Of a DNA stretch of 64,000 nt, positions 1 to 49,579 are shown piece by piece. Numbering within the stretch: the first letter of the stretch is position 1; each line of letters starts with the position of its first letter. The DNA comes from Callorhinchus milii (lineage: Eukaryota). Where the stretch lies: assembly GCF_018977255.1 (NCBI RefSeq), contig NW_024704742.1:8868001-8932000 (forward strand). The letters are read 5' to 3'. A program made the position numbers and the translations under genes. The notes beneath the pieces were generated by a model that was given only the letters and a program-made list of their open reading frames with translations, was not told where the DNA came from and searched no databases.

Positions 1-350
1 ATTACAGCTTCAAGCTGCTTTTTAAACTAAATCAGATTTCTAGGATCCAGGTAACTTCCAAATTCAATTGGGGTATAACTGAAATGCTTTGATGGTGTAT
101 TATGTCAACTCTGACTTGTCACTGTAGATTTTTTTACACTAACTGACCAGCACTCAAAGACCTGTCAGACTGGTGCTGTGTTAAATACAAGTCTCCCCAA
201 TTCCTTGGTAGGTGTCTACCAGTCAGAATATCTTCAGTAAATACACACTCGCCGACAAAAGAAAATCTTGCTGAATGGGTGAAATCAGTTATCGAACTTA
301 ATCACTTATCTATCCCAAAAAGTAGCGTAAACTAGGAATCTACTACATAC

Positions 351-605
351 CATTTCACACAGAGTCTTCTCCATTGCATCTCTCTGCGATTGAACACTTT
401 CCAGTTTGTGCTGCAGTTCATCTTTCTCCAGCACCACAGATGATTTTGCATTCTCCAGTTGCTGGACTTGATGGTTGAATTCCTGATCCAGTATTTGTGC
501 CTTGGAAATGTTATTGATCAGCTCACGCCTTAGTTGTTCAACCTCGATCAGTAAGTGGTCACGTTGAGATACTACCTGCTGAAGTTCATTTTTGCACCCG
601 AGTGT
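351..605 (-). CDS. CENPE: CENPE repeat unit 5 exon C (255 nt, 85 aa)
   Basis: tctgatag|ACA CTC ... TGT GAA ATG|gtatgt; phase 0-0, open. Confidence 0.9.
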
Positions 606-3600
606 CTATCAGAAAAAACATAAGGTTTTGCATGAAAATAACAATAACGGCTCCACTTCCTTGAAACCCATATGAGGATTAAGTGGCGATTAATTCTAAA
701 TCCCATCCTCAGAAGTAATTGTTCAAATCATTTATATGGCACAAAACTCAGTTATGGAACCCGTCTTCTGGCTGTGAGTAAGTGAAAGAGCAGAAAAACA
801 CATCACTTACCTTTTGTTTCTCTTTGTTTATTGTGTGGTCCTTTTCTGACAGACTTTGCTTCAGTTCAATTTCATTTTTCTGATTTACTTTTAGCTCTTC
901 TTGTAGATTTCTCATCTCTGCCTGATTCTCCACAGCCTGCAAAAGTGAATATCAGTTGCCTCTTGCAACAAAAGTAAGGTCGTTTTAAGCCACATTTCTA
1001 TAACATCCCTCATGCAGGGTAGCGTCCTCGAAAGCTTGACTGTGACGGTGATTAACTCTGACCTGGGGGAAGGGACCTTAGACATGGTTGAAGAGGAAGG
1101 TCTTCAGGTGTGACCTGAAGACTGAGAAGGATGGGGAAAGGCAGAGGGATAGAAGGAGCATGTCCTAGAATCTCGGGGCACATGGCTGAAAGTGCAGCCA
1201 CCGATGGCTAGATAATTGACATCCTTTGAACTCATGCAGTCCAGGCTGACATACCAGCCAAGATCTGGGAAAGCGCTGCATTGGTGCCGTCATTTGGATG
1301 AGACATTAAATCGAGGTCTCCTCTGCCTGTTAAAGATAGTATAGCACTATTCAAAAAGAGAAAGGGAGTTTCTCCCAATGACTTTGCCAACAATCCTCCA
1401 GACAGAATTGGTCAATCATTTCATGGTTGTTTGTGGGACATTGCAGTGCTTGCTTCACCCACAAAATACCCCATCACTAAACACTGTCCAGTATTTCCTG
1501 TAAAGTGATTTGAGACGTGCTCCCAAGCCAAAAAATGCTAAATTAGCTGTAAGGATTATTTATTTATTTTACTTTTGTTCCGGGAAATTCAAGGTTATTG
1601 TGGGGAATTAAACCGCTTCAATTTACCATCTCAATACTCTCTTGGAGATCACACTTCATTTGTTCACTCTCAGTTTGAAGGCTTGCTCGTTCTTGCTGTA
1701 ACTGCTCCTTCTCGGTCCTCAGGGTGTTCATGTTCTGCTGAAGAGAATAAAGCTGCTCCTTGAGTTCCTTTACTTCAATCTCATTTCTTGCCTCAATCAC
1801 TGTACTCTGATCTGGATTTAAACACTGATTTTCCAGGACATGATTTCCACATCCATCTTGGTATCGTATCTCCTAAATAGTTGTACAGACATATGATAAA
1901 TCCTTTGATCACAAGATGGGTTTCAATGAAGATAGTTTGGCCCATTTAATCTCACCCTCCCAAAATACTTATGTTTCTGACTTCCCATTACAGCTTCAAG
2001 CTGCTTTTTAAACTAAATCAGATTTCTGGGATCCAGGTAACTTCCAAATTCAATTGGGGTATAACTGAAATGCTTTGATGGTGTATTATGTCAACTCTGA
2101 CTTGTCACTGTAGATTTTTTTTACACTAACTGACCAGCACTCAAAGACCTGTCAGACTGGTGCTGTGTTAAATACAAGTCTCCCCAATTCCTTGGTAGGT
2201 GTCTACCAGTCAGAATATCTTCAGTAAATACACACTCGCCGACAAAAGAAAATCTTGCTGAATGGGTGAAATCAGTTATCGAACTTAATCACTTATCTAT
2301 CCCAAAAAGTAGCGTAAACTAGGAATCTACTACATACCATTTCACACAGAGTCTTCTCCATTGCATCTCTCTGCGATTGAACACTTTCCAGTTTGTGCTG
2401 CAGTTCATCTTTCTCCAGCACCACAGATGATTTTGCATTCTCCAGTTGCTGGACTTGATGGTTGAATTCCTGATCCAGTATTTGTGCCTTGGAAATGTTA
2501 TTGATCAGCTCACGCCTTAGTTGTTCAACCTCGATCAGTAAGTGGTCACGTTGAGATACTACCTGCTGAAGTTCATTTTTGCACCCGAGTGTCTAACAGA
2601 AAAAACATAAGGTTTTGCATGAAAATAACAATAACGGCTCCACTTCCTTGAAACCCATATGAGGATTAAGTGGTGATTAATTCTAAATCCCATCCTCAGA
2701 AGTAATTGTTCAAATCATTTATATGGCACAAAACTCAGTTATGGAACCCGTCTTCTGGCTGTGAGTAAGTGAAAGAGCAGAAAAACACATCACTTACCTT
2801 TTGTTTCTCTTTGTTTATTGTGTGGTCCTTTTCTGACAGACTTTGCTTCAGTTCAATTTCATTTTTCTGATTTACTTTTAGCTCTTCTTGTAGATTTCTC
2901 ATCTCTGCCTGATTCTCCACAGCCTGCAAAAGTGAATATCAGTTGCCTCTTGCAACAAAAGTAAGGTCGTTTTAAGCCACATTTCTATAACATCCCTCAT
3001 GCAGGGTAGCGTCCTCGAAAGCTTGACTGTGACGGTGATTAACTCTGACCTGGGGGAAGGGACCTTAGACATGGTTGAAGAGGAAGGTCTTCAGGTGTGA
3101 CCTGAAGACTGAGAAGGATGGGGAAAGGCAGAGGGATAGAAGGAGCATGTCCTAGAATCTCGGGGTACATGGCTGAAAGTGCAGCCACCGATGGCTAGAT
3201 AATTGACATCCTTTGAACTCATGCAGTCCAGGCTGACATACCAGCCAAGATCTGGGAAAGCGCTGCATTGGTGCCGTCATTTGGATGAGACATTAAATCG
3301 AGGTCTCCTCTGCCTGTTAAAGATAGTATAGCACTATTCAAAAAGAGAAAGGGAGTTTCTCCCAATGACTTTGCCAACAATCCTCCAGACAGAATTGGTC
3401 AATCATTTCATGGTTGTTTGTGGGACATTGCAGTGCTTGCTTCACCCACAAAATACCCCATCACTAAACACTGTCCAGTATTTCCTGTAAAGTGATTTGA
3501 GACGTGCTCCCAAGCCAAAAAATGCTAAATTAGCTGTAAGGATTATTTATTTATTTTACTTTTGTTCCGGGAAATTCAAGGTTATTGTGGGGAATTAAAC

Positions 3601-6600
3601 CGCTTCAATTTACCATCTCAATACTCTCTTGGAGATCACACTTCATTTGTTCACTCTCAGTTTGAAGGCTTGCTCGTTCTTGCTGTAACTGCTCCTTCTC
3701 GGTCCTCAGGGTGTTCATGTTCTGCTGAAGAGAATAAAGCTGCTCCTTGAGTTCCTTTACTTCAATCTCATTTCTTGCCTCAATCACTGTACTCTGATCT
3801 GGATTTAAACACTCATTTTCCAGGACATGATTTCCACATCCATCTTGGTATCGTATCTCCTAAATAGTTGTACAGACATATGATAAATCCTTTGATCACA
3901 AGATGGGTTTCAATGAAGATAGTTTGGCCCATTTAATCTCACCCTCCCAAAATACTTATGTTTCTGACTTCCCATTACAGCTTCAAGCTGCTTTTTAAAC
4001 TAAATCAGATTTCTGGGATCCAGGTAACTTCCAAATTCAATTGGGGTATAACTGAAATGCTTTGATGGTGTATTATGTCAACTCTGACTTGTCACTGTAG
4101 ATTTTTTTTACACTAACTGACCAGCACTCAAAGACCTGTCAGACTGGTGCTGTGTTAAATACAAGTCTCCCCAATTCCTTGGTAGGTGTCTACCAGTCAG
4201 AATATCTTCAGTAAATACACACTCGCCGACAAAAGAAAATCTTGCTGAATGGGTGAAATCAGTTATCGAACTTAATCACTTATCTATCCCAAAAAGTAGC
4301 GTAAACTAGGAATCTACTACATACCATTTCACACAGAGTCTTCTCCATTGCATCTCTCTGCGATTGAACACTTTCCAGTTTGTGCTGCAGTTCATCTTTC
4401 TCCAGCACCACAGATGATTTTGCATTCTCCAGTTGCTGGACTTGATGGTTGAATTCCTGATCCAGTATTTGTGCCTTGGAAATGTTATTGATCAGCTCAC
4501 GCCTTAGTTGTTCAACCTCGATCAGTAAGTGGTCACGTTGAGATACTACCTGCTGAAGTTCATTTTTGCACCCGAGTGTCTAACAGAAAAAACATAAGGT
4601 TTTGCATGAAAATAACAATATTTGATTGACGGGAGGATGTGCAGGAATAACTGTAGATAAAAGATCATGTTCAACAGGACCACGGCTCCACTTCCTTGAA
4701 ACCCATATGAGGATTAAGTGGTGATTAATTCTAAATCCCATCCTCAGAAGTAATTGTTCAAATCATTTATATGGCACAAAACTCAGTTATGGAACCCGTC
4801 TTCTGGCTGTGAGTAAGTGAAAGAGCAGAAAAACACATCACTTACCTTTTGTTTCTCTTTGTTTATTGTGTGGTCCTTTTCTGACAGACTTTGCTTCAGT
4901 TCAATTTCATTTTTCTGATTTACTTTTAGCTCTTCTTGTAGATTTCTCATCTCTGCCTGATTCTCCACAGCCTGCAAAAGTGAATATCAGTTGCCTCTTG
5001 CAACAAAAGTAAGGTCGTTTTAAGCCACATTTCTATAACATCCCTCATGCAGGGTAGCGTCCTCGAAAGCTTGACTGTGACGGTGATTAACTCTGACCTG
5101 GGGGAAGGGACCTTAGACATGGTTGAAGAGGAAGGTCTTCAGGTGTGACCTGAAGACTGAGAAGGATGGGGAAAGGCAGAGGGATAGAAGGAGCATGTCC
5201 TAGAATCTCGGGGTACATGGCTGAAAGTGCAGCCACCGATGGCTAGATAATTGACATCCTTTGAACTCATGCAGTCCAGGCTGACATACCAGCCAAGATC
5301 TGGGAAAGCGCTGCATTGTAAGAGGTGCCGTCATTTGGATGAGACATTAAATCGAGGTCTCCTCTGCCTGTTAAAGATAGTATTGCACTATTCAAAAAGA
5401 GAAAGGGAGTTTCTCTCAATGACTTTGCCAACAATCCTCAAGACAGAATTGGTCAATCATTTCATGGTTGTTTGTGGGACATTGCAGTGCTTGCTTCACC
5501 CACAAAATACCCCATCACTAAACACTGTCCAGTATTTCCTGTAAAGTGATTTGAGACGTGCTCCCAAGCCAAAAAATGCTAAATCAGCTGTAAGGATTAT
5601 TTATTTATCTAACTTTTGTTCCAGGAAATTCAAGGTTATTGTGGGGAATTAAACCCTTCAATTTACCATCTCAATACTCTCTTGGAGATCACACTTCATT
5701 TGTTCACTCTCAGTTTGAAGGTTTGCTCGTTCTTGCTGTAACTGCTCCTTCTCGGTCCTCAGGTTGTTCATGTTTTGCTGAAGAGAATAAAGCTGCTCCT
5801 TGAGTTCCTTTACTTCAATCTCATTTCTTGCCTCAATCACTGTACTCTGATCTGCATTTAAACACTCATTTTCCAGGACACGATTTCCACATCCATCTTG
5901 GTATCGTATCTCCTAAATAGTTGTAGATATATGATAAATCCTTTGATCACAAGATGGGTTTGAATGAAGACATATTGGCCCATTTGATCTCATCCTCTCA
6001 AAATACACACATTTCTGTCTTCCCATTACAGCTTCAAGCTGCTTTTTAAACTAAATCAGATTTCTAGGATCTAGGTAACTTCCCAATTCAATCGGGTTAT
6101 AACTGAAAAGCTTGGAATGTGTATTATGTCAACTCTGACTTTCACTGTAAATATTTTGACACAAATGGAGCAGAACTCAAAGACCTGTTAGAGTGTGTTA
6201 AATACAAGTCTCCCCAATTTCTTGGCAGGTGTCTACCAGTCAGAATATCTTCAGTAAATACACACATGCTGACAAAAGAAAATCTTGCTGAATGGATGAA
6301 ATCAGTTATTGAAATTAATCACTTATCTTTCCCAAAAAGTAGCCAAAACTAGGAATCTACTACATACCAGTTCAACCTTTTCACACAGAGTCTTCTCCAT
6401 TGCATCTCTCTGTGATTGAACACTTTCCAGTTTGTGCAGCAGTTCATCTTTCTCCAGCATCACAGATGATTTTGCATTCTCCAGTTGCTGGGCTTGATGG
6501 TTGAATTCCTGATCCAGTATTTGTGCCTTGGAAACGTTAGTTATAAGCTCACGCCTTTGTTGCTCAACCTCGATCAGTAAGTGGTCACGTTGAGATACTA

Positions 6601-9600
6601 CCTGCTGAAGTTCATTTTTGCACTCCAGTGTCTATCAGAAAAAACATAAGGTTTTACATGAAAATAACAATATTTGATTGACGGGAGGGTGTGCAGGAAT
6701 AACTGTAGATAAAAGATCATGTTCAACAGGACCACATGGGCTCCAGCTGCTTGAAACTCATATGAGGATTAAGTTGAGATTAATTCTAAATCCCATCCTC
6801 AGAGAACAAATTGTTGAAAGTATTTACTTGGCGCAAAACTCTCTCAGGTGTGGAATCCATCTTCTGGCTGTTTCGAGCTGTGAATAAGTGAGAGCAGAAA
6901 AACACATCACTTACCTTTTGTTTCTCTTCGTTTATTGTGTGGCCTTTTTCCGACAGACATTGTTTCAGTTCAATTTCATTTTTCTGCTTTACAATTAGTT
7001 CTTCTTGTAGATTTCTCATCTCTGCCTGATTCTCCACAGCCTGCAAAAGAATGAATGTTGCAACAAAAGTAAGGTAGAGTTTTAAGCCACAACAACATTT
7101 ACATAACATCCCTCATGCAGTATCCTAGAAAGCTCGACTGTGACGGGGATTGACGCTGAACTGGGGACACGGTTGAAGAGGAAGGTCTTCAGGTGTGACC
7201 TGAAGACTGAGAAGGATGAGGAAAGGCAGAGGGATAGAGGGAGCATGTTCTACAATCAAGGGCGTAGTGGCTGAAAGTGCAGCCACCGATGGCTAAATAA
7301 TTGACATCCTTTGAACTCATGCAGTCCAGGCTGACATACCAGCCAAGATCTGGGAAAGCGCTGCATTGTAAGAGGTGCCGTCATTTGGATGAGACATTAA
7401 ATCCAGGTCTCCTCTGCCTGTTAAAGATAGTATAGCACTATTCAAAAAGAGAAAGGGAGTTTCTCCCAATGACTTTGCCAACAATCCTCCAGACAGAATT
7501 GGTCAATCATTTCATGGTTGTTTGTGGGACATTGCAGTGCTTGCTTCACCCACAAAATACCCCGTCACTAAACACTGTCCAGTATTTCCTGTAAAGTGCT
7601 TTGAGACGTGCTCCCAAGCCAAAAAATGCTAAATCAGCTGTAAGGATTATTTATTTATTTTACTTTTGTTCCGGGAAATTCAAGGTTATTGTGGGGAATT
7701 AAACCCTTCAATTTACCATCTCAATACTCTCTTGGAGATCACACTTCATTTGTTCACTCTCAGTTTGAAGGCTTGCTCGTTCTTGCTGTAACTGCTCCTT
7801 CTCGGTCCTCAGAGTGTTCATGTTTTGCTGAAGAGAATAAAGCTGCTCCTTGAGTTCCTTTACTTCAATCTCATTTCTTGCCTCAATCACTGTACTCTGA
7901 TCTGGATTTAAACACTCATTTTCCAGGATACGATTTCCACATCCGTCTTGGTAACATATCTCCTAAATAGTTGTACAGACATATGATAAATCCTTTGATC
8001 ACAAGATGGGTTTGATTGAAGACATATTGGCCCATTTGATCTCATCTTCTCAAAATACTTACGTTTCTGTCTTCCCATTACAGCTTCAAGCTACTTTTTA
8101 AACTCAATCAGATTTCTAGGATCTAGGTAACTTCCCAATTCAATCAGGTTATAACTGAAAAGCTTGGAATGTGTATTATGTTAACTTCGACTTTCACTGT
8201 AAATATTTTGACACAAATGGAGCAGAACTCAAAGACCTGTCAGAGTGTGTTAAATACAAGTCTCCTCAATTCCTTGGTAGGTATCTTACCAGTCAGAATA
8301 TCTTCAGTAAATACACACATGCTGACAAAAGAAAATCTTGCTGAATGGATGAAATCAGTTGTTGAAATTAATCACTTATCTTTACCAAAAAGTAGCCAAA
8401 ACTAGGAATCTACTACATACCATTTCAACCTTTTCACACAGAGTCTTCTCCATTGCATCTCTCTGTGATTGAACACTTTCCATTTTTTTGAGCTGCAGTT
8501 CATCTTTCTCCAGCACCACAGATGATTTTGCATTCTCCAGTTGCTGGGCTTGATGGTTGAATTCCTGATCCAGTATTTGTGCCTTGGAAACGTTAGTTAT
8601 AAGCTCACGCCTTTGTTGCTCAACCTCGATCAGTAAGTGGTCACGTTGAGATACTACCTGCTGAAGTTCATTTTTGCACTCCAGTGTCTATCAGAAAAAA
8701 CATAAGGTTTTACATGAAAATAACAATATTTGATTGACGGGAGGGTGTGCAGGAATAACTGTAGATAAAAGATCATGTTCAACAGGACCACATGGGCTCC
8801 AGCTGCTTGAAACTCGTATGAGGATTAAGTGGTGATTAATTCTAAATCCCATCCTCAGAGAACAAATTGTTCAAAGTATTTACTTGGCGCAAAACTCTTT
8901 CTGGCTGTTTTGGGCTGTGAATAAGTGAGAGCAGAAAAACACATCACTTACCTTTTGTTTCTCTTTGTTTATTGTGTGGTCCTTTTCCGACAGACATTGT
9001 TTCAATTCAATTTCATTTTTCTGCTTTTCATTTAGTTCTTCTTGTAGATTTCTCATCTCTGCCTGATTCTCCACAGCCTGCAAAAGAATGAATATGAGCT
9101 GCCTGTTGCAACAAAAGTAAGGTAGAGTTTTAAGCCACAACAACATTTACATAACATCCCTCATGCAGTATCCTAGAAAGCTCGACTGTGACGGGGATTG
9201 ACGCTGAACTGGGGACACGGTTGAAGAGGAAGGTCTTCAGGTGTGACCTGAAGACTGAGAAGGATGAGGAAAGGCAGAGGGATAGAGGGAGCATGTTCTA
9301 CAATCAAGGGCGTAGTGGCTGAAAGTGCAGCCACCGATGGCTAAATAATTGACATCCTTTGAACTCATGCAGTCCAGGCTGACATACCAGCCAAGATCTG
9401 GGAAAGCGCTGCATTGTAAGAGGTGCCGTCATTTGGATGAGACATTAAATCCAGGTCTCCTCTGCCTGTTAAAGATAGTATAGCACTATTCAAAAAGAGA
9501 AAGGGAGTTTCTCCCAATGACTTTGCCAACAATCCTCCAGACAGAATTGGTCAATCATTTCATGGTTGTTTGTGGGACATTGCAGTGCTTGCTTCACCCA

Positions 9601-12600
9601 CAAAATACCCCGTCACTAAACACTGTCCAGTATTTCCTGTAAAGTGCTTTGAGACGTGCTCCCAAGCCAAAAAATGCTAAATCAGCTGTAAGGATTATTT
9701 ATTTATTTTACTTTTGTTCCGGGAAATTCAAGGTTATTGTGGGGAATTAAACCCTTCAATTTACCATCTCAATACTCTCTTGGAGATCACACTTCATTTG
9801 TTCACTCTCAGTTTGAAGGCTTGCTCGTTCTTGCTGTAACTGCTCCTTCTCGGTCCTCAGAGTGTTCATGTTTTGCTGAAGGGAATAAAGCTGCTCCTTG
9901 AGTTCCTTTACTTCAATCTCATTTCTTGCCTCAATCACTGTACTCTGATCTGGATTTAAACACTCATTTTCCAGGATACGATTTCCACATCCATCTTGGT
10001 ATCGTTTCTCCTAAATAGTTGTACAGACATATGATAAATCCTTTGATCACAAGATGGGTTTGAATGCCTTTAACTTTGGGATGGAATTACAGGGAGCGAA
10101 GCCCAATTTTTAACAATCTATGTTTTTGTATCCCTTGATTCTTCCACTCCACTGAGAATATTATCATTTACAGTTTAATCCCATTTTCTATTGTACTTCT
10201 CCAGAATGTTCTACTTCACATTCATCCTCCTGACTTGAAAGACTCTAAACCAAATATAAGGATTATTATGATGATGCAAACTGAATTCCACATTCCATAA
10301 AACTCTCCTAACCGCTCGCATTTATTGTCATGTTAACAGCAGTTGTGCTCAATTCAACCCATGCTCAGAGGGAAAAGATTAGACATCTTGCTCGACATCG
10401 AGCCCAAAGGGTAACACAAGAAGAAATGCCAAAGTATAATTTGAACCAACCTGCTTATCATTTCTGAGTTCATCCTTCTCAGAGGACAGACCTGTGAGGT
10501 CACGTTCCATTTGATCTGTTTCTTGGACAACCGTTGAGAGCTGCAGTTGCAGTTGTTTGCACTGGTTGTTCAGTCCATTTAGTTCATGTTTTGATTCTTT
10601 TAGTCTGGATTGTGCAGCCATTAGTTCTTCATAAAGCTGACCTTTTGCTATCGTCAACTCTTCATATTTATTTTTGTATTCCTCTCTCTCAGCTAATAAT
10701 TTATCTTTCTCTTCAGTCAAAATGCACAGTTCAGTAGCAGATTCGGCCATCTAAACATGCAAAGGAGGGAAGAACTCAGTGATCTAGTCCAGGTATGGAA
10801 AAAAGCACATGCCTACATTTTAGGAGACATAACTTGTCAACAAGTTCTGCCTTGATCAAAATTTCCACGCACTGAGTAGTCAATTCTTGTGTCAGGCTAT
10901 CTAACTGGTTCAAAAAAGTGCCCTAATACCTAATAATCTTTCTATGTACAAGTTATTTATACAGTACAACTCGCACAAGTCGTATCAGTTGGGACCCCAA
11001 CATTCAATAACATTTACGAAAAGTATGAGTGACAAGACAATTTGCACAAGTCGGATTTTATACTACGAACACATAACAGTAAACAAGTCCCTCGTTTTCC
11101 GCACTCATTTCAACTGAGTATATTGTACTGTAGTGTGCAGGTGGTACATCATCATTGCAGCTGATAAGTGTACATGTGGTGACAGATTAAGATGTTTCCC
11201 ACGCTCGTTTCAAACGGAATACTGCGCATGTTTACTTCGGCTGGTAGGTTGGCATGGTTGACAAGTCAAGACACTGCACACATACTTCAATCAGTCAGTA
11301 TATATGGTAGCGGTGTTACGAGGTTTGCAAAGAGTTTAAGATGTATTTTGGATCATTACAATTTAGCCATTTATCCGATTTATAAAATGACCTAATGCAA
11401 AGAAACCTAACCATTTTTTGGTAGGAAACTGATTGGTGCACATAACACTTAGGTGATTATACGATTTATAATGAGAAGACTTATGCAATTTTTACTGTAC
11501 TTATCCATTTTAGAAATATAATGCTTTACAGAATTTTTTGGTAGGTAAAATTACTGTTTTTTCGTAGTATCGCCCCTAAAATATTTATCTAACAATTCAA
11601 AATTTAATAAGAAAATGACAAAAACTTAAAGTTTATGCAAATTGGCAGTACTGTGTTGGCAATACTGAGCAGTGATTCTCAACCTTTTTCTGATCAAGGA
11701 CCCAACTGTAAACCTCTCTTTAGTGCAAAAATTATCTGGTTTACTAAATATTTCTTATAATAATAATCCTAGCATTTGATATAGCACTTTTCACATCTTC
11801 TAGACATCTCAAAGCGCTTCACAGAATATACTGTAAAGTGAATTGACTGTACATTTTGTGAGCGAAATGCAGCAACCAATTGCACACAGCAGTGTCCCAC
11901 AAACAGTCATGGATTGAAAATGACCAATTTATTATTTTTTTTATTTTTTTTGGAGGGATTATTATCAGGCGTGTGGAGTAAGGAAATTTGCCCAAGGTTT
12001 CACCCTGCCTGGAATTGAACCCAGATGTCTCGCTTGCAAGGTGAGTGCTCTATCCACTGAGCTACAGGACCACACCAAACCAATCAGAGTTCCCCTCATG
12101 CCACCTACACATTGAATTCCCATGACTGTAATGGATAGTGCACTCTCTCCTTAGTGATGCATCCTGCTTACCTAATTCAACAAAAACAACAACTTGCATT
12201 TATATAGTGCCCTTCACACTGGACGGCATCTCAGAGCGCTCAGATCTGGAGAATATTAAGAGCAGGCTTGCAAGATCTAAGATTCGGAGGGTCCCCAGAG
12301 TGTTTGCTATTGTACTGCTGGAGTTTCACCAGCCAAAGCTGCATGGTTTTATGCAACTGCATTCAACCATTGTAAACTCTGTATGAAAAGCTTCCTACTG
12401 CTTGTCCAGCCAGCACTCCTCTACTTGTTAGGGTTTCGGCTTGTAGAGTTGATAGGAGTTGAGTGGGAAGAATCCCTGCCCCCATCATCCCCACCTCCCC
12501 AAGTGATGATGAGTCAGGCTGGCTGATCTGTCATGAGCATTGCCCTGGACTAGTGCGGATCCGCACTAACAAGACCACCAAAAAGGGTTGACTCATTTCC

Positions 12601-15600
12601 GAAGTAATGTTGCCAAGCATATCACCTTGGAACCAGTTCAGCTCCAAGAGATTCCGCTAGCCTTTCCTCCCGCCAGGAGTATAATCACTGGTTGTTGATC
12701 TAACATCCGCCATGTACAAATTTGAGTTAGGTGGATGATGGGTATCAGGAACCACCGCAAGCTTCCTAGTGAGCAGCACATCTCAGCATGAAATACGTGA
12801 GAGCAGACAGGTGAGGATGCAGGCGTTGGAAGTATTGAATTATCTGGACCTTACGGATGGTGGAAATAACGAGACTGGCAAGGATTGCGTTAGGAAAATC
12901 TAGGCAAGAGGTAACAAGGCATGAATGAGATTTTAGCAGCATTTTGTGAGAGATGGGGACAGATGGCAAAGATGAAGAAAAGCAGCTTTGATAAGGACCA
13001 AGGTTATACGCTTTCATGTCGGGAGGAGGGTTTTGAGATGCACATTGAAGGAGCCAAAGGAGGGAGCAAGGCGAAGGGAATGTGGAATGGAGTTCCATAG
13101 GATGGGGGCAGAAAGGCTGAAGGCCCGATCACTGATGGTGTTTTACAAGGTAAGTGGACAGAACAACAGGACCAGGAATCAAGACTAGAAATGGAAAAGT
13201 AGATTTGGGTTTTGACTGTGGATAACGTCTACAGAAAGGGCATGTTGATAAGGAAAAGTAGGGTCCCCGAGGATAGAGCTGTGAAGTACTCTACAACTGA
13301 TGATGTGAGGGTGGGAGGAGCGAACATTAAAAGAGACAAAGCAATGGCTTTCAGGGGGCAGGGGAAGGGGAGGAAAGTGTGTTAAACATGGGAAAAACAC
13401 AGCTGTTAAGCAGATGGTGGCATTAAATTTGCTGTTGATGAAGACCAAAGGGAGAGGTTGAAGGCCGAGAAAGCGTTTGTGAGGGAGTGGGGACGGGGAG
13501 AGATGTTCCAGGGGCAGAATGAGAAAGTGGAGATTAAATGTAAGGTATACTGACTATGTACTTGTAAGCAAATGCGGCAGCCAATTTGTGCACAGCGGTG
13601 TCCAACAAACAGCCATGGCATGAATCAGCAATTTCACCTGAAGATTCATTGGCCAGGATACTGGAAAGAATTCCCTACTCTTGGTGAATAGTGCCATGGA
13701 ATCTTTAATGTCCACCTGAACAGACACATGGGACCTCAGTTTAACATCTCATTCGACGGATAGTCAATGGCACCACTCAAAAAGAGAAGGAAATTACTCC
13801 TGACTAACAATCCCACAAATATAATAGGTCATTCACTTCATGGCTGTTTGTGGGACATCGCTGTGCACAAATTGGCTACAGTTTTTGCCCACACAAATGC
13901 ACTCACTCCATTGTATAGTACTGTATACCCTATGAAGCACTTTTGGGAGGCCTCCTAACATGAAAGGTGCTACAACAAATACAAGGACTAAGCACTCTGA
14001 GACACTACTTATATTGAAGGGCACAGTACCAACACAAGCTGTTATTAATTAAATGTATTTGAAAAAGTTTACCTGTCAGATTAATATTTTCACACCGTAT
14101 GAATGAAACTGTGAAAAGAAGTCCTAGAAATTCGATAAAACTGAATCCATGCAAATTGTGACAGTACATCTTCCTAAAATTCAAATAAACACCTCCTGCA
14201 TTTCCTTTATTCACCTCTTTTGTTACTTTTTCAAAGTTCAATCAATTTAAGTTGACACGTTCTTCCCATTACAAATTCATGCTGGACATCCCTCATCAAT
14301 TACATTTTTTCTAAATGTTTCATAACAACATCAGTCATTATGACTTGAAGTAGCTTCCCTACAATTGATGTAACAATCACCAGCTCTTCCCTTTCTTAAA
14401 CAATGGAGTGACATTTGCCTCCTTCCAGCATTCTTGGAAACCACTGGGGTTTCCAAGAGGGTGACAAATGACACAGATGATAGACTCTAACATAATACAG
14501 TAAGTGTTTCATTTAGTTGTCGCTATTCCAGTCTCATTTGAAAACTGAATTAGACATTCAAAGAAATCAAAGAATCATACAATTACTGAAGTTGCAAGCC
14601 CTAATGCTAATTTAGTAGATAAACCCATTTACATGTAAAACATACACCACAATCACTGCTGAAGTAATCAATTTTCTGCACAATGGGTATTTACAGTTCC
14701 TTACCGGTGTTGTCAATTTTTCCACTTCATCAGGCAATGACTTGCACTCACATAAGCGGTTCACCTCTTGCTGCAGGCAAGTCTTTTCTTCTGATGTTTT
14801 AGCCAATTGTTGCTGAAGCTCAGAAATCGTCTTTTCTAGTTGAACACAGTCCAACAAGTCTAATATTGTTTTTTTAAAAAAAAATACATTAGAAGACTGA
14901 TGAACTTCTTCAATCACACAACAGCAATTAATTTAAAAACATTAATAAGAAGTAATGGATGCAAAAATACAGTACAGCAGTACAATGGGTCACTGTGACT
15001 CATTTAATTCTCAACATCCAAAATAATTCATTCTATACCTTCATTCTGATGACATTTACTGAACACAGATTATCTATTTTACATATACTAATGGAATGAA
15101 TCGACAGTCCTTCAATTCGCTGAAAGGAAACAAAATCAGTGGCATTTCTGCAATTTTTTTGGAGGAGGAAGTGACCTAACTTAGTCATGTTTGTTGTTCA
15201 AAACAATAATAGATGGTATATAAAAATCTACATTTAACAATGGAAATTCGATGAGACCTGGTGGCAGGAGGAGGCAGAGGGTCCAGGCATAACACTAATT
15301 TTTTTTACGAATTAAAATTGGAAAACTGTATGCCTAGCTATAATCAAATCGCCTCTATAGCAAATACTTTTGTGACTGGGATAAATTGCAGTGACATACT
15401 TTTGGGAACTTTTCCATCCATAAGAGTTGTTAGCTTGGTATTTTCAATAAAAACGTGCTGCAACTCTTTCTGCATATCAGTTTGCATTTGATTGTAGCGT
15501 GTTCGCTCAGCATCCAGCTGGTTCCGATACAATTGTGTGTCCTTCTCCATCTGCTGATAGTTCATTCTCATTTCATTCTTCAGATCAAATGTTAGAGGGG

Positions 15601-18600
15601 AAAGAAAAAAAAATTACTTTAGAACACGAGATTTCATTTTGAATGAAATTATTTTTGATTTGTGTACTTTGCTACATTGATAAGAAATACAGTCAAAGCT
15701 GTCTTCAGCAACGTATCAGGGGACTGGGCCAAAGTGTCCTTAATGTAAATAAGGTGGCCTCTGAATAAGGGTGCTTTGATGTGTGAACCTGGGTGTCCAG
15801 GGGGGTTGTTAACAAGGGGTTGCTGAATAGAGGCGTTTGATTGAATCTCACAATAGCCTATCAGAAACATTAAAGTTCCCGGTGTCACTCTTGATCTGAA
15901 GCACAGAAACTTTGAAACCATATCCATACAAATTGACACCGAGTCTAATGTGGATATCAAGTCATCAAGCAAAATACAATAGGGCTACATTGCCAACCAA
16001 AAAACACAGTACCACATTGTGCCAGCCCAATTTAATTTTTAATTAATTAATTTTCTACCTTTCTCAGTTTGTCTCTCTGGCTATAGTTTGCTCTGTATTT
16101 GTAGGTGAATGTGGCAGCCTATTTGCATACAGTAATGTTCCACAAACAGCCATGAAGTAAATTACTAATGTTATTTGGAAGATTGTTGGCCATCAGGAGA
16201 AACTTTCTTCTCTTTTTGAGTCATGACATGGGATCTTTAACATCCACCTAAAGAGGCAGATGGGACCCTGGTTTAACATCTCATTCCCAAAGGATGGCAT
16301 GTCCAACAGTACAATGTACAGTACAATGCAGTCCCTGTAATGCATTGGAGTGTTGGGTTGATCTAGACTACGTGAGCTCAATTCTATGTGCTTGAACCTA
16401 CAACTTTCTAACTCAGTTGTAAGTGCTACCAACTGAGCCAGGTTGATACTTTATAAAGTTAAGCAGCAAATGAAGCACTGAGGCAACATTTCTAATCGCT
16501 CAAAAAAAGGTCATTCACAAGGACGGTACTTCTGAAGAACTTAAAGAAATGAATTTACCACTTTTGGCATGGAGCGATTTTAGCAAATTAATCTGTATGT
16601 ATAGAATGCTGAAATGAGAATGGAGGTAGTAGCTACAAACAAGGTGCATTTATATAGCACCCTTCACCTTCGGACACCAAGCAAGGAAGAGCGGGAAGGA
16701 GAGAGGGGGATGGCCGTAGGCACGTTCATAGTGGTAGGATTTGAGGCAAGGTGGAGTGGTAGGGTGGGTGAGCTCCAGAGATGAGTGGCGTAGAACTGAA
16801 GGCTCAACCACCGATGGCGGCATGGAGAGGGAGTGGGACACAGCAGACCCCTGAGCTGAGGGAGCGAGCAGAGAAGTCGGGGAGGAGAATTCAGAGGTAA
16901 GATGCCAGCGAGTGAATGGATTTGTAGGTGAGACCTTGACATTGATCAACATCAACAAATAATTCAATTTTTGTATTACCATTTCTTCCTTCATCTGTGC
17001 ATTTTCACTTCTTAGAAAGGCAGAGTGCTTATTTCCATCACATATTAAGATTTCAGCATCATTCAGTGATTGTTGTAACTGCACAATCTGCTTCTTCAAA
17101 TCCTCACCGTCACTCTGAGGAATACAAATCAAGATATTGGAATTTACACAACTATGAAATGACGGTCTATTTCCTCATTCCACAGAATGATTATACCCCA
17201 AATTCAAGGTCCATCTCAAGACCTACTTCTTTGACTGCACTTTCGGTTAGCTTTCCCTTCCTCACCCCCTTTGGCTCCACCCCAGTTTGGGTGCCAAGCC
17301 AATATTGTTAAGTGATTTGTGATATCCTCCTGATTTGAAATGCACTAAACAAGTGTAAATTTGTATTGTAAATTGTGATTTATTTTATTTATAGCTTAGA
17401 GACATTGTCTGTAGATTGTTTTAATTTTGTTAAAAACAAAGGTCAAAATTGTCAAAATTCAGTGTGAAAAATGTTGAAAGAGTTTATGGGCCTTTACACT
17501 TGTTCAGTTGCGCAAGATATTCTGAGGTGCATAACGATAAACGTTCCATTTGATATAGTGCTTTTCATGTCTTCGAGATGATGTCTCAAAGCGCTTCACA
17601 GAATATATTGTAAAGTGAATTGACTATATTTGTGAGCGAAACGTGGCAGTCAATTGTGCACAGCAGTGAGCCACAAACGGTCGTGGATTGAGTGACCAAA
17701 TTGTTATTTTATTTATTTCCTTGAGGGATTACTGTCAGACGTGTGGAATAAGGAAACTTGCCCAAAGTTTGACCCTGTTGGGAATCGAACACAGGTCTCT
17801 TGCTTGCGAGGCGAAAGCTCTAACCACTGAGCTACAGGACTCCTCAAGCATACATTTCAGATAGATCCATTCATGAAGTGGGAAATGGAGCAGGCAATCA
17901 TACCCTAGTCATACAAGGAGTCAATCTGACAGGGAAACTTCTGGGCTCAACAAAGCACAAACACCCCCCAAGCAACCACACTAGGTTTACACAGGTTTGT
18001 TCACATGTGGAAGACCATTAAATGCCAGAACCGACATTATACTGCCATTCTTAAGAGTATTAAAACCAGACAGAGCTTCATTTACCAACATCCACATGGA
18101 AATTCCTGAGTTTGGAATAGAATTTGCATTCTCGGCCCAGAGGGTGCAAATTCCATTCCAAACTTACTTAACCTAGGAGTGAGTATTAGGCACATGTTGG
18201 CAAGAGTCCAGGCTTAGGGTCCCCAGATTGTGCCTGTGTCACCACCCATTTCTCACCCATGTCAATCTCATCTCAATCTTAGGTGGAGTTTAGCTACCTA
18301 AAAATATAGCTTGCCATTGAAAGCACTGTCTGGCAAGCTATATCCCCTCTCCCCTCCATTTGTCCTTCTACCCAGGGTTTGTCTGTATGTCACCTGAAGG
18401 CCAGTTCATCTTATCTTCCCACCCTCAATAGGATAGTCACTAATTAGTAATTCGACCTCCAACATGAACAGGTTTGAGCCCTCACAAGACAGATGCCAGG
18501 TACCAGGAGCTTCCTCGCAAGCAGCACAGCTCAACATGAAATACATGAAAACATTGCCAGCATCTTCCAACCCAGAGTTCAGATATTCATGCCCACCCAC

Positions 18601-21600
18601 ATTAGTCCTGAGCAGTAACCCGAACTATTAAAAATGAACAGAAAATTATACGGGGTCTTTGGAGGTTTTACTGTATTACATACATTCAGGCGTACAGGAG
18701 AGGAGCTTGTAACTACAAAAATAATGCACATTTCGATTTGAAAAAAACGATGTTTAAAAATTGCATGCATGTATATGGTCTAAGAACATATTCATGTCAG
18801 AAGGGAAAGTAAAATTTATAACTAAGAGATAGTGGAAAGGTAAAAATGTGTGCCCGTGCACCAGAAGACTGTACCACAAAGCATACCAAATTCAATGTTA
18901 CAGAAATACCCATATACAAACATTACCCAAAATGTGACAACCAGAAAATAATTTTATACTGATGAAAATGGTGTAATCATCTTTTTTTTAATGCAGATGT
19001 TCAGTGAAACCAGAGTATAATTGTATACTTACATATATTATAACTATATAATTGTATAACCAAAAGCCGTTGGAAGCTTCAGCTTCCGCTACAGTAAAGC
19101 AATTTAAAAATCTGGCTTTGAAAACCAAGGCAGTGAACTTTGAAGGTGGTTGTAACTTGAGATGCTAGAGGCGAGAGAACCTGGTTCGATTTACAGGCAG
19201 CTTCCTTACTCCACACACACCTACCTGTTTACCTAGCAGTAAGTAGGAACCCAGTTGTGTCACTTTTCCAGGGGTACTAATCACTTCAAAATAAATAATA
19301 ATATGGTCACTCAATGCACGGCTGTTTGTGGGAGACTGCTGTGTGTAGTTGACTGCCGCGATTTGCCCACAAAATAGTTACTACACTTTACAGTATGTTC
19401 TGTGAAGCGTATTGAGACATCTCGAAGACGTGACAAGTCGCTATATCAAATGCAAGTATTATTATCCCTTGAGTTAATTTACACTTAGGTATGTTCGAGG
19501 TTTTTTGATAAATCATTAGTTGAGTTTGTTTTTTCCTTTCTTTCAAAAATATGGCGCTGCCATATACCACACAGATAGTAAGTCAAATTGTTCCTTACTA
19601 CTTATGCAAATGTGGGTGAAGGCGTTCCAATTAGTGACTTGCCCCAGAAGGTTGCCCATCTTGACTGGCAGCGTTAAAGGAAGGCATCTGCCTTGGCTTG
19701 TTTTGATGTGCAGTGGCTCGGTACAGTAAATGATAGCATCGGCATATTTGGCAGGAAGCAAGGAGTTCAAATCACCATCTGCCTTCTGATTAACCCGAGA
19801 CTTAGTTTGCAGGATCAGCAAAGACGAAGTTTCTTCTCGAGGTAAAGCTGACATCTGCAAATTCAGAATTTTGATCTATCGGGAGATGCATGCTTGATCT
19901 ATCAGGAGTACACTCAAATTCACCCATAGCTCAATACATACCACGCAGATAGTAAGTCAAATTGTTCCTTACTCCTTAAAGAAAATTCTCAAAGTTCAGT
20001 TTGCAAGGTTTTGTGGAGCAGCAGCTGTTGGATGCCCTTGCTGTATTCTGCCACCTCCAATAGGATATAGTAATTCCAATTCCATCTCCAGCTGGTATCA
20101 ATGTGTCCAACAATTCCTTTACTACATTCCCAAAAGGACAACTTTCTTCCTAAGAGATCCCTTCCAAATCCAGCTCTAGTTCAGGTACATCTTTGAAGCT
20201 CTTCGAGACACTACTCCACGTGAAGTGCGCTATATAAATTCAAGTTGTTATGGTTGAAGACAACCCAAATCATCCAAACTGTTAGCCTGGCTGTGTATGG
20301 CTTAAGCACCAGTGCCGTTGGGCTCTTCCACCCCACTACTGTTAACATGGCTATCTGGAAAGTGACATGCAAGGAACCAGGGTAATGATGCACCTAGAAG
20401 TCAAACTGATCCCATCACGAAAGGGGCAAATCCCTTTCCAAATCCAGCTTCAGATCATTATCTCTTGAAGACAACCCAAATCACTCACACCCCATTCCAC
20501 CATTCATCAGCTTGGAACACACTCATTAAGTCTGAAAATCTATAGTCATCTAAAAACTGGCTCAAACTATGAAAATAGTAAAATTCCACTGTGATAATTT
20601 CTTTCATCAAAAACAGACTTTTGTACATGTTTTCAAATGGCCTGCACACTATTACTCTTAATATTCCACCTATTGCACTATTATGGGCCCAAAATTATTT
20701 TAATATACCTTGAGTGACTTACAATGTAATGCAATCTACTGTATTTTGCAAATATTTTAAACTTACCTGTGCTGTGCAGGTATAAAGTTTCAGGTTTCTT
20801 GCTGCCGCTTCTTTCAGCTGTTGAATTTGGTTTTGAAGGTCTAAAATCTGTTGATCTTGTTGTATTTTTTTCGCTTGGCTGATTATTTCAGTCTATTATT
20901 AACAAATAAAATATCTTCAAACTTCATTTTAGGCTAGCAGGAGTTACAACAATTACAAGTAAATCAAATGCATTGTGTAAACAGAACTTGAAATCAGGGC
21001 CTGTACTTCTAAACTGAATCAATATGTAACCTTGCTCGTGACCAATCGCAGAAACATTGAATTATATACACAGATTTCTGAACAATACAGAACCCACACA
21101 GGTCTGAACACGGTAAGGATATGAAGATTGCAATGCTTCAGAATGCACCGTTCGTGTTAATTAACATAAAGGATAAGTTAGGAAACACTGTAAACAAACA
21201 GGCCAACTTGGTACCGTTTCTTAAAACAATGAAGAGCTGAATCATGGTGCCAAGGGGCCTCAGCAATGGTTTAGTGACAATTTAAAACTATTTAATGCTA
21301 AAAAAAAAATCAACATTTTGACGGCACAAAAAGGAAACTGAATTAAATTGGGTTTTCTTACTCAGTGAAATTCTGCCTCGAGAATAGAGACATTAAAGAG
21401 AGGCCTCAGAGAATTATCAAGATATTGCAAAGGAGTCACTGAACGCAAGCTAATTAAGGAACAATATTAATGTTCATAAATATTCTTTGTTGTATGAAAC
21501 AACCTTTACCTCGCAATTCGAAATAAAAATTCAGTTTTGAAATCAAATTAAAGCAAGGGGGGGGGGGATGGAAGAAAATAAAACTCCCTGGACTTGTCCT

Positions 21601-48446: not shown

Positions 48447-48489
48447 CCTCAGCCTCGCGCCGCTCCGCCGCTTCAGATCACCAACCGCC

Positions 48490-48600
48490 GCGACCCGTTT
48501 AAATCTCGCTCCGCTCCACTCTGATTGGTTGCCGCAGACCGGAAGCCAAAGGGGGAGGCGGGACATGCACTGCCGGAAACAAAGCGGATTGACCAATCAG
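48490..48600 (-). promoter_or_regulatory. CENPE core promoter: CHR-like TTTAAA, two CCAAT boxes, two ETS cores and a GC box
   Basis: TTTAAA 48498-48503; ATTGG 48524-48528; CCGGAAG 48539-48545; GGGAGGCGGG ~48553-48562; CCGGAAA 48573-48579; CCAAT 48593-48597. Confidence 0.7.
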
Positions 48601-48647
48601 TGAGCAGTTCATCCTCATTCCAATCATTAAACGTTAGTCAAACATTG

Positions 48648-49265
48648 GGAGGTCACACATGGGGGGTCACACATGGGGTCAATCATGGGGGGTCACACAT
48701 GGGGTCAATCATGGGGGGTCACACATGGGGTCAATCATGGGGGGTCACACATGGGGGGGTCAAATGTAGGGGTAGTCAAACATGGGGCGTCAAACATGGT
48801 GGTAGTCAAACATGGGATCAAACATGGGTGGGGGGGTGTCAAACATGGGTGGGGGGGTGTCAAACATGGGTGGGGGGGTGTCAAACATGGGGGGGGTGTC
48901 AAACATGGGGGGGGTGTCAAACATGGGGGGGTGTCAAACATGGGGGGGGGGTGTCAAACATGGGGGGTGTCAAACATGGGGGGGGTGTCAAACATGGGGG
49001 GGGTGTCAAACATGGGGGGTGTCAAACATGGGGGGGGTGTCAAACATGGGGGGTGTCAAACATGGGGGTGTCAAACATGGGGGGGGGGGTGTCAAACATG
49101 GGGGGGTGTCAAACATGGGGGGGGGGTGTCAAACATGGGGGTGTCAAACATGGGGGGGGGTGTCAAACATGGGGGGGGTGTCAAACATGGGGGTGTCAAA
49201 CATGGGGGGGGGTGTCAAACATGGGGGGGGGTGTCAAACATGGGATCAAACATGGGTGGGGGGTG
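48648..49265 (+). repeat. G-rich minisatellite (GnTCACACAT / GnTCAATCAT grading into GnTGTCAAACAT)
   Basis: Tandem units directly visible. Confidence 0.95.
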
Positions 49266-49579
49266 GAAGATGTTCAGTGAATTCTTGATTTGGAAAATTG
49301 GGCAAAAAAATAAATAAGCTGTCAATAATCTCCAATCACATCTTCCAGACTTGAGTTGAATTGACATTTGTTAGATTAGGGTATTAAGGGATATGGGAGG
49401 ACTGTCAAGGCTTTGGACCTGAGCTGGACCTGGGAATCAGGAGGGGGTGGAGGCAGGGAGGGTGGGAATAGGAGCTCGATTGAATTAGCGGTCGAAAAGG
49501 CCATCTTGACATGGGCCTTGAAGGAGGCATGGGAGGGAGCGAGGCATAGGGAATGGAGTTCCAAGTGGGGTGGCAGAGA

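Follow-up and report, generated by a model that had tools for sequence, protein, structure and literature searches.

The kringle IV-2 region of LPA and the triplicate region of nebulin are multi-exon coding macrosatellites whose copy number varies between people. Among kinetochore proteins, the MELT arrays of KNL1 have undergone recurrent and rapid evolution that makes them strikingly different from one lineage to the next, as set out in the available part of the source (Tromer et al., 2015; PMC4558858). In the sections of two papers available to us, the human and Xenopus kinetochore motor CENP-E is described as a long, flexible, discontinuous coiled coil that connects its motor to a kinetochore-binding tail, one dimer spanning up to 230 nm (PMC7475649, citing Kim et al., 2008; PMC4116301). 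According to the same sections, "Bonsai" CENP-E, whose stalk is 85% shorter, is impaired both in binding microtubules and in chromosome congression (PMC4116301, Vitre et al., 2014; PMC7475649). The word "repeat" has 0 occurrences in PMC7475649 and in PMC4116301, and a search of literature titles and abstracts, outside subscription journals and supplements, found no description of internal repeats or exon amplification in CENP-E.

Results

The window, by which we mean the whole 64,000-nt stretch of Callorhinchus milii DNA that was analyzed, very probably carries, within the gene for CENP-E (kinesin-7), a tandem array that is genuine, transcribed and protein-coding (Table 1). Within bases 1-10040, a repeat search returned 12 direct-repeat families of 4-5 copies each, spaced 1,987-2,069 nt start to start, and blastn with the unit at 1-1987 as query, run on the window and 30 kb of its flank, found five in-window copies at 89.7-99.7% identity, the last ending at 10066. 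Tandem Repeats Finder missed this array because its longest period was 500; all that it reported were short arrays, G-rich and CA-rich, in other parts of the window. Exon positions were obtained by exact mapping of the current NCBI protein model, P0007, onto the window DNA. Each cassette contains exon A of 246 nt (82 aa), exon B of 126 nt (42 aa) and exon C of 255-267 nt (85-89 aa). As in a macrosatellite, kilobase units lie head to tail at the DNA level with their introns included, and 19/19 repeated exons of the full array match P0007 exactly, with an AG acceptor, a GT donor, compatible phase (0) and an open frame.

A sequence-only reading of the window had given these exon sizes, phase 0-0, the lack of stops and the intact splice sites, and all 15 in-window exons, each with a length divisible by three, agree on mapping. 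It had also counted 1,052 aa of repeats after 917 single-copy residues: the five in-window cassettes encode 213 + 212 + 209 + 209 + 209 = 1,052 aa, and the spliced model gives exactly 917 residues before the first. The array does leave the window, as that reading had proposed, and extends to ~7,630 bases before window base 1 (7.6 kb outside the window). Its count of "at least five" units holds for the window, but the full array consists of six A-B-C cassettes, a seventh C exon and two decayed relics. Past the sixth cassette the order is a decayed copy of exon D (D′), the seventh C exon, exon D proper and a shortened relic of exon A (A′); D′ and A′ are unused in P0007. The 19 intact repeated exons supply 1,352 of the 2,947 model residues (46%). 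Across the genome, exon C occurs 7 times and exon A 6 times plus 1 relic, every one at the CENP-E locus; all first-look candidates were scored for these counts (10/10 and 13/13). A high-copy interspersed repeat lies in the A-B intron of U1, and in U5 it occupies 993-1207 and 1283-1449, unit positions with many genome-wide matches. Since this repeat is present in all in-window cassettes, it was copied together with the unit.

Table 1. Features of the CENP-E locus, in window coordinates
Feature	Position	Strand	Basis or detail
In-window tandem array (cassettes U1-U5)	1..10066	-	Repeat spacing, blastn, exact mapping of P0007
Cassette U1, 2,048 nt	8019..10066	-	98.0% identity with U2; exact P0007 match, AG/GT sites
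U1 exons	A 10010-9765, B 9077-8952, C 8687-8421	-	C 267 nt, 89 aa
Cassette U2, 2,050 nt	5969..8018	-	P0007 mapping; 98.0% identity with U1
U2 exons	A 7962-7717, B 7040-6915, C 6631-6368	-	C 264 nt, 88 aa
Cassette U3, 2,053 nt	3916..5968	-	P0007 mapping; 99.3% identity with U4
U3 exons	A 5912-5667, B 4971-4846, C 4579-4325	-	C 255 nt, 85 aa
Cassette U4, 1,987 nt	1929..3915	-	P0007 mapping; 5 mismatches + 1 gap vs U5
U4 exons	A 3859-3614, B 2923-2798, C 2592-2338	-	C 255 nt, 85 aa
Cassette U5, 1,986 nt	1..1928	-	Final 57 nt fall before window base 1
U5 exons	A 1872-1627, B 936-811, C 605-351	-	C 255 nt, 85 aa
High-copy interspersed repeat in U1 A-B intron	9192..9737	.	Very high word depth
Final single-copy stalk exon ahead of array	10451..10750	-	Model residues 818-917
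Single-copy neck + stalk exons (6-10)	22919-22785, 20892-20767, 17114-16980, 15577-15401, 14857-14705	-
Single-copy neck + stalk exons (1-5)	29301-29152, 27057-26941, 25629-25465, 24148-24035, 23099-23028	-
Motor + neck exons (7-12)	41204-41137, 39457-39383, 37733-37682, 35580-35493, 35355-35226, 32715-32596	-
Motor + neck exons (1-6)	48446-48373 (ATG 48446), 47456-47371, 45967-45878, 44483-44365, 43952-43836, 42988-42907	-

The gene had been named CENP-E from its letters alone, and the motor, tail matches, colinearity, RRVTW site and CKTQ end all uphold that name. The 12 motor and neck exons (32596..48446) keep an open frame with AG/GT at every junction; among the single-copy exons in 14705..29301, ends with non-zero phase are accurate to +/-2 nt. 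The kinesin motor patterns P-loop, SSRSH and DLAGSE occur at 44466, 41175 and 37724 of the minus strand, and PF00225 scored above its cut-off in all three motor exons tested. All 36 tail matches are CENP-E, 35 being so named and the unnamed P0011 clustering with skate CENP-E, with E-values from 3e-130 to 4e-88 in cartilaginous fishes and about 1e-27 in mammals. The spliced model matches Heterodontus CENP-E colinearly across residues 11-2183 and aligns with elephant CENP-E over 11-1146 and 2398-2947. RRVTW, an RVxF PP1-docking/Aurora site, falls at model residue 423 and is encoded in exon 27057-26941. Of 11 orthologs examined, 7 carry the motif at 414-424, and the pattern search did not find it in the other 4, all batoid proteins. 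In the available text of PMC7475649, the RVxF PP1-docking site overlaps an Aurora site (human T422). The last four residues of the model are CKTQ, and each of the 11 orthologs examined has CK[TMIV]Q or CRTQ there. Such a C-terminal C-x-x-Q box is a farnesylation site. CENP-E is described as farnesylated in the same part of PMC7475649.

The 2,947-aa protein is our own spliced model, in which the motor-to-array link is not spanned by any one read or contig seen. P0007 annotates every repeated exon, yet it is without the motor, and the older-assembly gene models (P0001-P0006) contain just 1-3 cassettes. With all cassettes the computed mass is ~342 kDa, versus ~208 kDa for a one-cassette version, which would measure 1,808 aa. 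Pfam returned no family for the cassettes, and P0007 gave only sub-threshold DUF5527 and MucBP_2 matches.

Neighboring units are the most alike. The sequence-only reading had put the differences between units 4 and 5 at about six by eye, which proved correct: with the cassettes numbered in gene order, an alignment of U4 with U5 across 1,986 bases of exon and intron shows 5 mismatches and 1 gap column (99.75%; 99.698% over 1,988 by blastn). U3, U4 and U5 are mutually 99.0-99.75% alike, about 6-19 mismatches, with U3-U4 at 99.3%; U1-U2 are 98.0% identical, identity between these two groups is ~93.7%, and U6 is 87-89% identical to the others. A 61-nt stretch in the B-C intron of U3 is missing from U4 and U5. 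The exons of U6 share 95.7-96.8% identity with those of the other cassettes, its introns 82.4-85.1%. Identities of 88-99.7% across 2 kb in five copies make a chance origin impossible. Exon mapping and unit alignments thus support the proposal of a tandem coding array with its introns included.

Transcript evidence came from short-read contigs of three RNA-like runs, X5, X6 and X7 (two studies), whose RNA label is a guess backed only by their intron-free joints. The A-B intron is spliced out (joint 9076-9764) in contigs of all three, and the B-C intron (joint 8687-8952) in X6 contigs. X5 and X6 contigs join a C donor back to an A acceptor, a return of 1590, and X7 shows a variant joint; the C-to-A joints in three RNA-like runs imply that at least two cassettes are read in series. 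One 669-nt X6 contig reads A-B-C-A, and one X5 contig joins the upstream single-copy exon to A1 (joint 10009-10450). None of these spliced joints occurs in the DNA-like run X1. That transcripts might omit the repeated exons had been raised as an objection to the array, but the X5-X7 contigs have them spliced in tandem, although short reads give no cassette count per mRNA. Since all repeated exons are phase 0-0, transcripts could skip cassettes without frame loss. In 12 older cassette pairs pN/pS is 0.19-0.33, and we conclude, on these comparisons of sequence, that the repeated exons have been under purifying selection.

Two further leads were set aside. Where X1 contigs cover unique parts of the unit, their word depths are 10-29, compared with 7.56 for the flanking contig; contig depth is not copy number, and X1 is possibly the assembly's own sample, so no copy count was drawn from it. 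The DNA-like runs (X1-X4) date from 2025. A 2,824-nt X5 contig ends on exon 10750-10451 and reaches 2,494 nt beyond the stretch compared. This extension equals 817 model codons plus 43 nt, which we regard as a mere coincidence of length, the sequence not being visible.

Each cassette is predicted to form a ~25-residue Gly/Pro linker followed by a ~184-residue parallel, in-register dimeric coiled coil. In an AlphaFold2 model of exon A, residues 1-19 are non-helical with low confidence and residues 20-81 are helical, with a mean pLDDT of 87; Gly and Pro occupy cassette positions 7, 9 and 20. Two copies of one cassette gave a complex prediction of 0.51, versus 0.00 for the best of 3 controls, in runs that share at least 86% of contacts with a partner pLDDT of at least 83. 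Contacts run i to i with 3/4 spacing from P0007 residue 1214 to 1397, the first 25 residues lying outside the interface, and a crude heptad scan agrees with the predicted coiled coil. The passing mark is reached by 21/30 proteins solved as pairs of one chain and by 0/23 solved as single chains; among eukaryotic pairs it is met by 17/29 overall and by 1/7 of those without an older solved relative, so the cassette's pass may reflect memory of solved coiled coils. The predictions were made without alignments, and coiled coils pass easily. The rise per residue of a coiled coil is established knowledge. The Gly/Pro break and coiled coil suggest that each cassette adds one jointed rod of ~27-31 nm, in keeping with the earlier estimate of up to ~30 nm per unit.

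Repeats are also present in the stalks of other vertebrates. In eight elasmobranch CENP-E proteins predicted in NCBI/UniRef (Heterodontus francisci, Hemitrygon akajei, Pristis pectinata, Amblyraja radiata, Mobula hypostoma, Mobula birostris, Pristiophorus japonicus and Carcharodon carcharias), 8/8 contain 7-12 tandem C-like modules that start 86-87 aa apart, and exons A and B occur once. The C modules of C. milii start at intervals of 209-213 aa, or 88 aa for the last pair, and with A and B each present six times the array is not of the elasmobranch type. Some elasmobranch modules are 94-100% alike, so amplification or homogenization was recent there also. In a module tree the C. milii modules form one clade, and the elasmobranch arrays contain both position-conserved and homogenized modules. 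Windowed self-BLAST of eight tetrapod CENP-E proteins found the mid-stalk to be repeated as well, with mammalian offsets of ~147-150 aa and a best identity of just 59-68%. A profile built from 64 cartilaginous-fish C modules matched 16/27 mammalian proteins weakly, at about E 1e-5 over ~35-45 residues, which makes the tetrapod repeats no more than possible homologs of C. Searching exon C with phmmer against 1.84 billion representative proteins gave only 6 matches, each either from C. milii or shark or a short unnamed fragment; exon C by itself thus does not reach tetrapod CENP-E. On these protein comparisons, the repeat principle is not peculiar to the chimaera lineage: the repeats in elasmobranchs and tetrapods make the chimaera array a three-exon version of a widespread repeat region that turns over.

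Discussion

Is the array real, and is all of it used? One concern is that a long-read assembler over-expanded it, so that U3-U5 are copies of one or two real units. Only about 6-19 mismatches separate these three, the older-assembly models show 1-3 cassettes, and the copy number of U3-U5 rests on one assembly. However, every unit bears its own substitutions, U3 has the 61-nt intron stretch that U4 and U5 lack, other contigs have no extra copies, and the old models themselves mix variants of U1, U3-5, U6 and C7 type. As U1, U2, U6 and the seventh C exon (C7) are clearly distinct (88-98%), the array has at least four or five real units however U3-U5 are judged, and we regard over-expansion as very unlikely. 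Alternatively, the array may be present in the genome while splicing treats most cassettes as optional, yielding shorter stalks and leaving the six-cassette protein rare or absent. All 19 repeated exons are symmetric, the older-assembly NCBI isoforms are predicted with differing cassette numbers, and short-read contigs cannot count cassettes. A collapsed assembly can nevertheless explain the old isoforms; C-to-A joints occur in three RNA-like runs, none of the 15 joints listed, beyond which there are 48 further ones, skips a cassette, and purifying selection appears to have acted on all older cassettes. Optional use of most cassettes therefore seems unlikely to us, and we favor an array that is genuine and read in series.

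How the cassettes came to be so alike is a separate matter. We envision that the units multiplied through replication slippage or unequal crossing-over among themselves, perhaps with a contribution from gene conversion. The high identity may stem from gene conversion rather than recent duplication, and the array could then be old, with near-identity maintained by ongoing concerted evolution. The single clade of C. milii C modules and the mixed elasmobranch arrays fit such a history, and in the young pairs introns are as similar as exons, which is also expected from conversion. Yet identity drops stepwise along the array, from (U4,U5) to U3, (U1,U2) and U6, and U4 and U5 share a structural deletion, as successive duplications predict. 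We consider an old, converted array doubtful, though a more serious contender than either of the preceding alternatives. Gene conversion and recent amplification are not mutually exclusive.

If the cassettes are jointed rods, they would lengthen the tether that runs from the motor to the kinetochore-binding tail. The suggestion that the array changes the reach of the motor in ~210-aa steps survives in part: each cassette adds ~210 aa, but the stalk is not unusually long, since the 2,947-aa C. milii protein falls within the 2,565-3,008 aa of seven full-length cartilaginous-fish orthologs. Array turnover would hold the stalk near the usual ~2,600-3,000 aa instead of building an exceptional one, a view based on 9 cartilaginous-fish proteins (one partial) and 8 tetrapod proteins. 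As a tentative proposal, possible but somewhat short of probable, we suggest that the jawed-vertebrate CENP-E mid-stalk (~1,000-1,350 residues) is a fast-turnover array of exon-sized coiled-coil units, with a period of 87 aa in elasmobranchs, 209-213 in the chimaera, ~102-104 in squamates and ~147-150 in mammals, that has been rebuilt repeatedly by gain and loss at ~2,600-3,000 aa, selection acting on tether length and jointedness and not on sequence. On the same proposal, the C. milii cassettes, 0.25-1% apart, may vary in copy number between individuals.

Why might this matter? Shortened "Bonsai" stalks show that length and flexibility matter for congression, for reasons described as still unclear in the available text (PMC4116301, PMC7475649). 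Countable, near-identical, frame-neutral cassettes offer natural, easily engineered variants in ~210-residue (~30 nm) steps, and copy-number variation in C. milii, if true, would give natural stalk-length variants. A stalk rebuilt from different repeats in sharks, rays, chimaeras, squamates and mammals at similar length would suggest that tether length is selected. Collapsed assemblies can under-report such genes, as the 1-3 cassettes of the older models and the motorless current NCBI model illustrate.

Compared with known systems, the C. milii array resembles LPA and nebulin in that a kilobase, multi-exon unit is repeated head to tail in frame, changing protein size in fixed steps; unlike theirs, it sits in a kinetochore motor tether. 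KNL1 is likewise a kinetochore protein with a lineage-variable repeat array, but its repeats, as presented in the available part of Tromer et al. (2015), are short linear BUB-docking motifs, whereas the C. milii unit is a predicted structural rod segment in which no binding motif is evident. The human and Xenopus CENP-E stalks form the same tether between motor and kinetochore-binding tail. Closest are the elasmobranch CENP-E proteins, which share the gene and the stalk region, have a homolog of exon C as their module and carry segments resembling A and B directly before it. Elasmobranchs repeat C alone, a putative single-exon module in arrays compared as proteins, whereas C. milii amplifies A, B and C together with a period of 209-213 aa.

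Results

The first 10 kb of the window (1–10066) are made up of head-to-tail units that recur every ~2 kb. A repeat search of the window returned 12 direct-repeat families of 4–5 copies each, spaced 1,987–2,069 nt apart, and blastn with bases 1–1987 as the query, searched against the window together with the 30 kb upstream of it, found five in-window copies (89.7–99.7% identity), the last ending at base 10066. Tandem Repeats Finder did not report the array, but only because its longest period was 500. The sequence-only reading had described at least five such units running off the window; the array indeed extends 7.6 kb past window base 1, adding a sixth cassette and a seventh C exon (C7). When every first-look candidate in the genome was scored, exon C had seven copies and exon A had six plus one relic, all at the CENP-E locus, a cassette copy number taken from a single assembly.

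To place the cassette exons, P0007, the current NCBI C. milii CENP-E protein model (2,584 aa), was mapped exactly onto the DNA. In each cassette (U1–U6 in gene order), exon A is 246 nt, exon B 126 nt and exon C 255–267 nt long, all with AG acceptors, GT donors and phase 0-0, and U1–U5 encode 213 + 212 + 209 + 209 + 209 = 1,052 aa; exon sizes, phase, splice sites and total all agree with the sequence-only reading. The array exons are already in the NCBI annotation, as P0007 includes six cassettes and C7 and skips two relics, D′ and A′. Both relics are traces of earlier duplications in which another unit was copied, a C–D block of about 2,166 nt. Repeated exons account for 1,352 residues, or 46%, of the full-length model described below.

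Exons and relics of the CENP-E array beyond the window (positions in bases before window base 1)
Feature	Position	Remarks
U6 exon A	114–359	
U6 exon B	1823–1948	
U6 exon C	2229–2492	
D′ (exon D copy, decayed)	3514–3684	donor gone, reads into stop
C7 (seventh C exon)	4396–4659	
True exon D	6690–6863	
A′ (exon A relic)	about 7474–7629	without acceptor, cut off after about 52 codons

The gene lies on the minus strand. Its single-copy coiled-coil exon at 10750–10451 is 100% identical to six partial C. milii proteins, which their sources name "centromere-associated protein E-like", and a search with the tail returned P0007 along with ray, shark, mammalian and reptilian CENP-E. P0007 is without a motor; intact motor exons lie upstream in the window, with kinesin motifs at 44466, 41175 and 37724. 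The twelve motor and neck exons, from the ATG at 48446 through 32596, contain no stop and have AG/GT at each junction, and PF00225 scored above cut-off in all three motor exons tested. Joining them to P0007 gave a spliced model, made in this analysis, of 2,947 aa (342 kDa), in which exactly 917 residues precede the array, the number reported previously. At residue 423 the model has RRVTW, a site described in a review (PMC7475649) as a PP1-docking site overlapping human T422, and it ends in CKTQ, the same kind of ending found in 11/11 orthologs checked. The tail matches, PF00225 hits, RRVTW and CKTQ bear out the earlier assignment of the gene to CENP-E. Given the intact motor and neck exons at 32596–48446, the gene as annotated seems to have been split or cut short. 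The first four residues of P0007 come from intron sequence directly upstream of exon 29301–29152 (window 29301–29346).

Other features of the window were also recorded. Minisatellite arrays with 12–52-bp units, G-rich on the + strand, occur at 47537–48330 and 48635–49263, on both sides of CENP-E exon 1 (48446–48373), in intron 1 and the 5′ flank. Positions 48001–50000 have a GC content of 0.55 and a GC skew of +0.39; since the + strand is G-rich there, the CENP-E gene strand is C-rich. These minisatellites may contribute to promoter structure. An open frame on the minus strand (54182–54316), some 6 kb upstream of where CENP-E starts, encodes a Kazal-type serine protease inhibitor domain (PF00050, E 9e-15) and is presumably part of a neighboring gene. 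One short interspersed element is present in many copies in introns and flanks (11800–12150, 17500–17900, 55740–56060, 57890–58170 and elsewhere), giving recurring translated strings in stop-to-stop frames.

Several observations address whether the array is functional. Exons of U6 are 95.7–96.8% identical to those of the remaining cassettes, and introns 82.4–85.1%. Of the cassette pairs, the 12 older ones have pN/pS values of 0.19–0.33, and the three youngest have too few changes to judge. We aligned contigs from three RNA-like runs (X5, X6 and X7; two studies) to window 8100–10800. The A–B intron is spliced out in contigs of all three runs and the B–C intron in X6 contigs; the upstream exon is joined to A1 in X5. 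In X5 and X6 a C donor connects back to an A acceptor, X7 has a variant of this joint, and the exon order in a single 669-nt contig is A-B-C-A. No such joints occurred over 8100–10800 in the DNA-like run X1. The "RNA" status of X5–X7 is an automated guess; the joints themselves indicate spliced RNA. Exon conservation, pN/pS and spliced joints support a coding, expressed array in which at least two cassettes are transcribed in series.

With introns included, U4 and U5 are 99.75% identical (5 mismatches plus a single gap over 1,986 positions, close to the roughly six differences first counted), U3 is 99.0–99.3% identical to U4/U5, and U1 and U2 are 98.0% identical. The (U1,U2) and (U3–U5) groups are about 93.7% identical, and U6 is 87–89% identical to all others. 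A 61–66-nt stretch of the B–C intron is present in U3 (4621–4681), U1 (8729–8794) and U2 (6673–6738); its common absence from U4 and U5 marks them as the youngest pair. The A–B intron consists partly of a high-copy interspersed repeat, present in every in-window unit. Since this repeat was copied with each of these units, duplication took place at the DNA level. Identity declines step by step with distance, and relics lie at the 3′ end; both are consistent with successive unequal exchanges. Gene conversion may also have added to cassette similarity, and is inseparable from duplication here. Ages depend wholly on a rate; at an assumed 1e-9 substitutions/site/year, intron divergences of 0.3%, 1.7%, 7% and 15–18% would translate into ages of approximately 1.5, 8, 36 and 80 million years.

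In AlphaFold2 predictions of exon A alone, residues 1–19 are non-helical with low confidence and residues 20–81 form a single helix; Gly and Pro occupy cassette positions 7, 9 and 20. Two U4 copies predicted as a complex scored 0.51 (the highest-scoring of 3 controls reached 0.00), with runs sharing at least 86% of contacts and partner pLDDT of at least 83. Modeled contacts run from residue i to i with 3/4 spacing across 184 residues, the first 25 lying outside the interface, and a crude heptad scan is consistent with this coiled coil. The dimer-score mark was reached by 21/30 solved same-chain pairs and 0/23 solved single chains. Among eukaryotes it was reached by 17/29 pairs, yet by 1/7 pairs without an older solved relative, so the U4 pass may reflect solved coiled coils that the predictor has memorized. 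Coiled coils rise about 0.15 nm per residue. At that rise, each cassette would add roughly 27–31 nm of stalk, in line with the up to ~30 nm per unit proposed earlier, and the entire array, at full extension, would contribute as much as about 200 nm.

Discussion

How does this stalk compare with those of other vertebrates? In all eight elasmobranch CENP-E proteins, A- and B-like segments occur once each (C. milii has six of each) and are followed by 7–12 tandem C-like modules (segments homologous to exon C) whose starts are 86–87 aa apart. In a 64-module tree, batoid modules cluster by position and most Heterodontus modules by species; the C. milii modules, all seven of them, make up a single clade beside the last Heterodontus module. 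As best module-to-module identity is 94–100% in six species (60–67% in skate and sawfish), amplification or homogenization is ongoing in several lineages. Repeats are also present in all eight of the tetrapod proteins compared, from around residue 765 to around residue 2220, and match the C-module profile only weakly. Snake and gecko proteins have 102–104-aa offsets with up to 99% and 93% identity, respectively; in six mammalian proteins (five species), best repeat identities are 59–68%, with offsets near 147–150 aa commonest in 4/6. In Hemitrygon akajei (red stingray; P0008) there is a second large internal duplication (~1958–2220 versus ~2401–2663, offset 443 aa, 97–98% identical), and the ~104-aa repeats of Thamnophis elegans (garter snake; P0025) are up to 99% identical. 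These two cases are independent recent amplifications in CENP-E.

Seven full-length cartilaginous-fish orthologs are 2,565–3,008 aa long. As the C. milii model, at 2,947 aa, falls within this range and would be 1,808 aa with a single cassette, the array gives a stalk of normal, not extended, length. From the 17 proteins compared, we infer length homeostasis of CENP-E. According to PMC4116301 and the review PMC7475649, stalk length and flexibility matter: "Bonsai" CENP-E, with a stalk shortened by 85%, binds microtubules poorly and fails in congression (PMC4116301), and one dimer of CENP-E can extend over as much as 230 nm, why such length is required being described as unclear (PMC7475649). 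The word "repeat" is absent from both texts. A full-text literature search returned no description of CENP-E internal repeats or exon amplification in titles or abstracts. Multi-exon coding macrosatellites are known as a class, examples being LPA KIV-2 and the nebulin triplicate region, and the C. milii CENP-E array belongs with them. The nearest analogue found is KNL1, for which the abstract of PMC4558858 describes recurrent repeat evolution.
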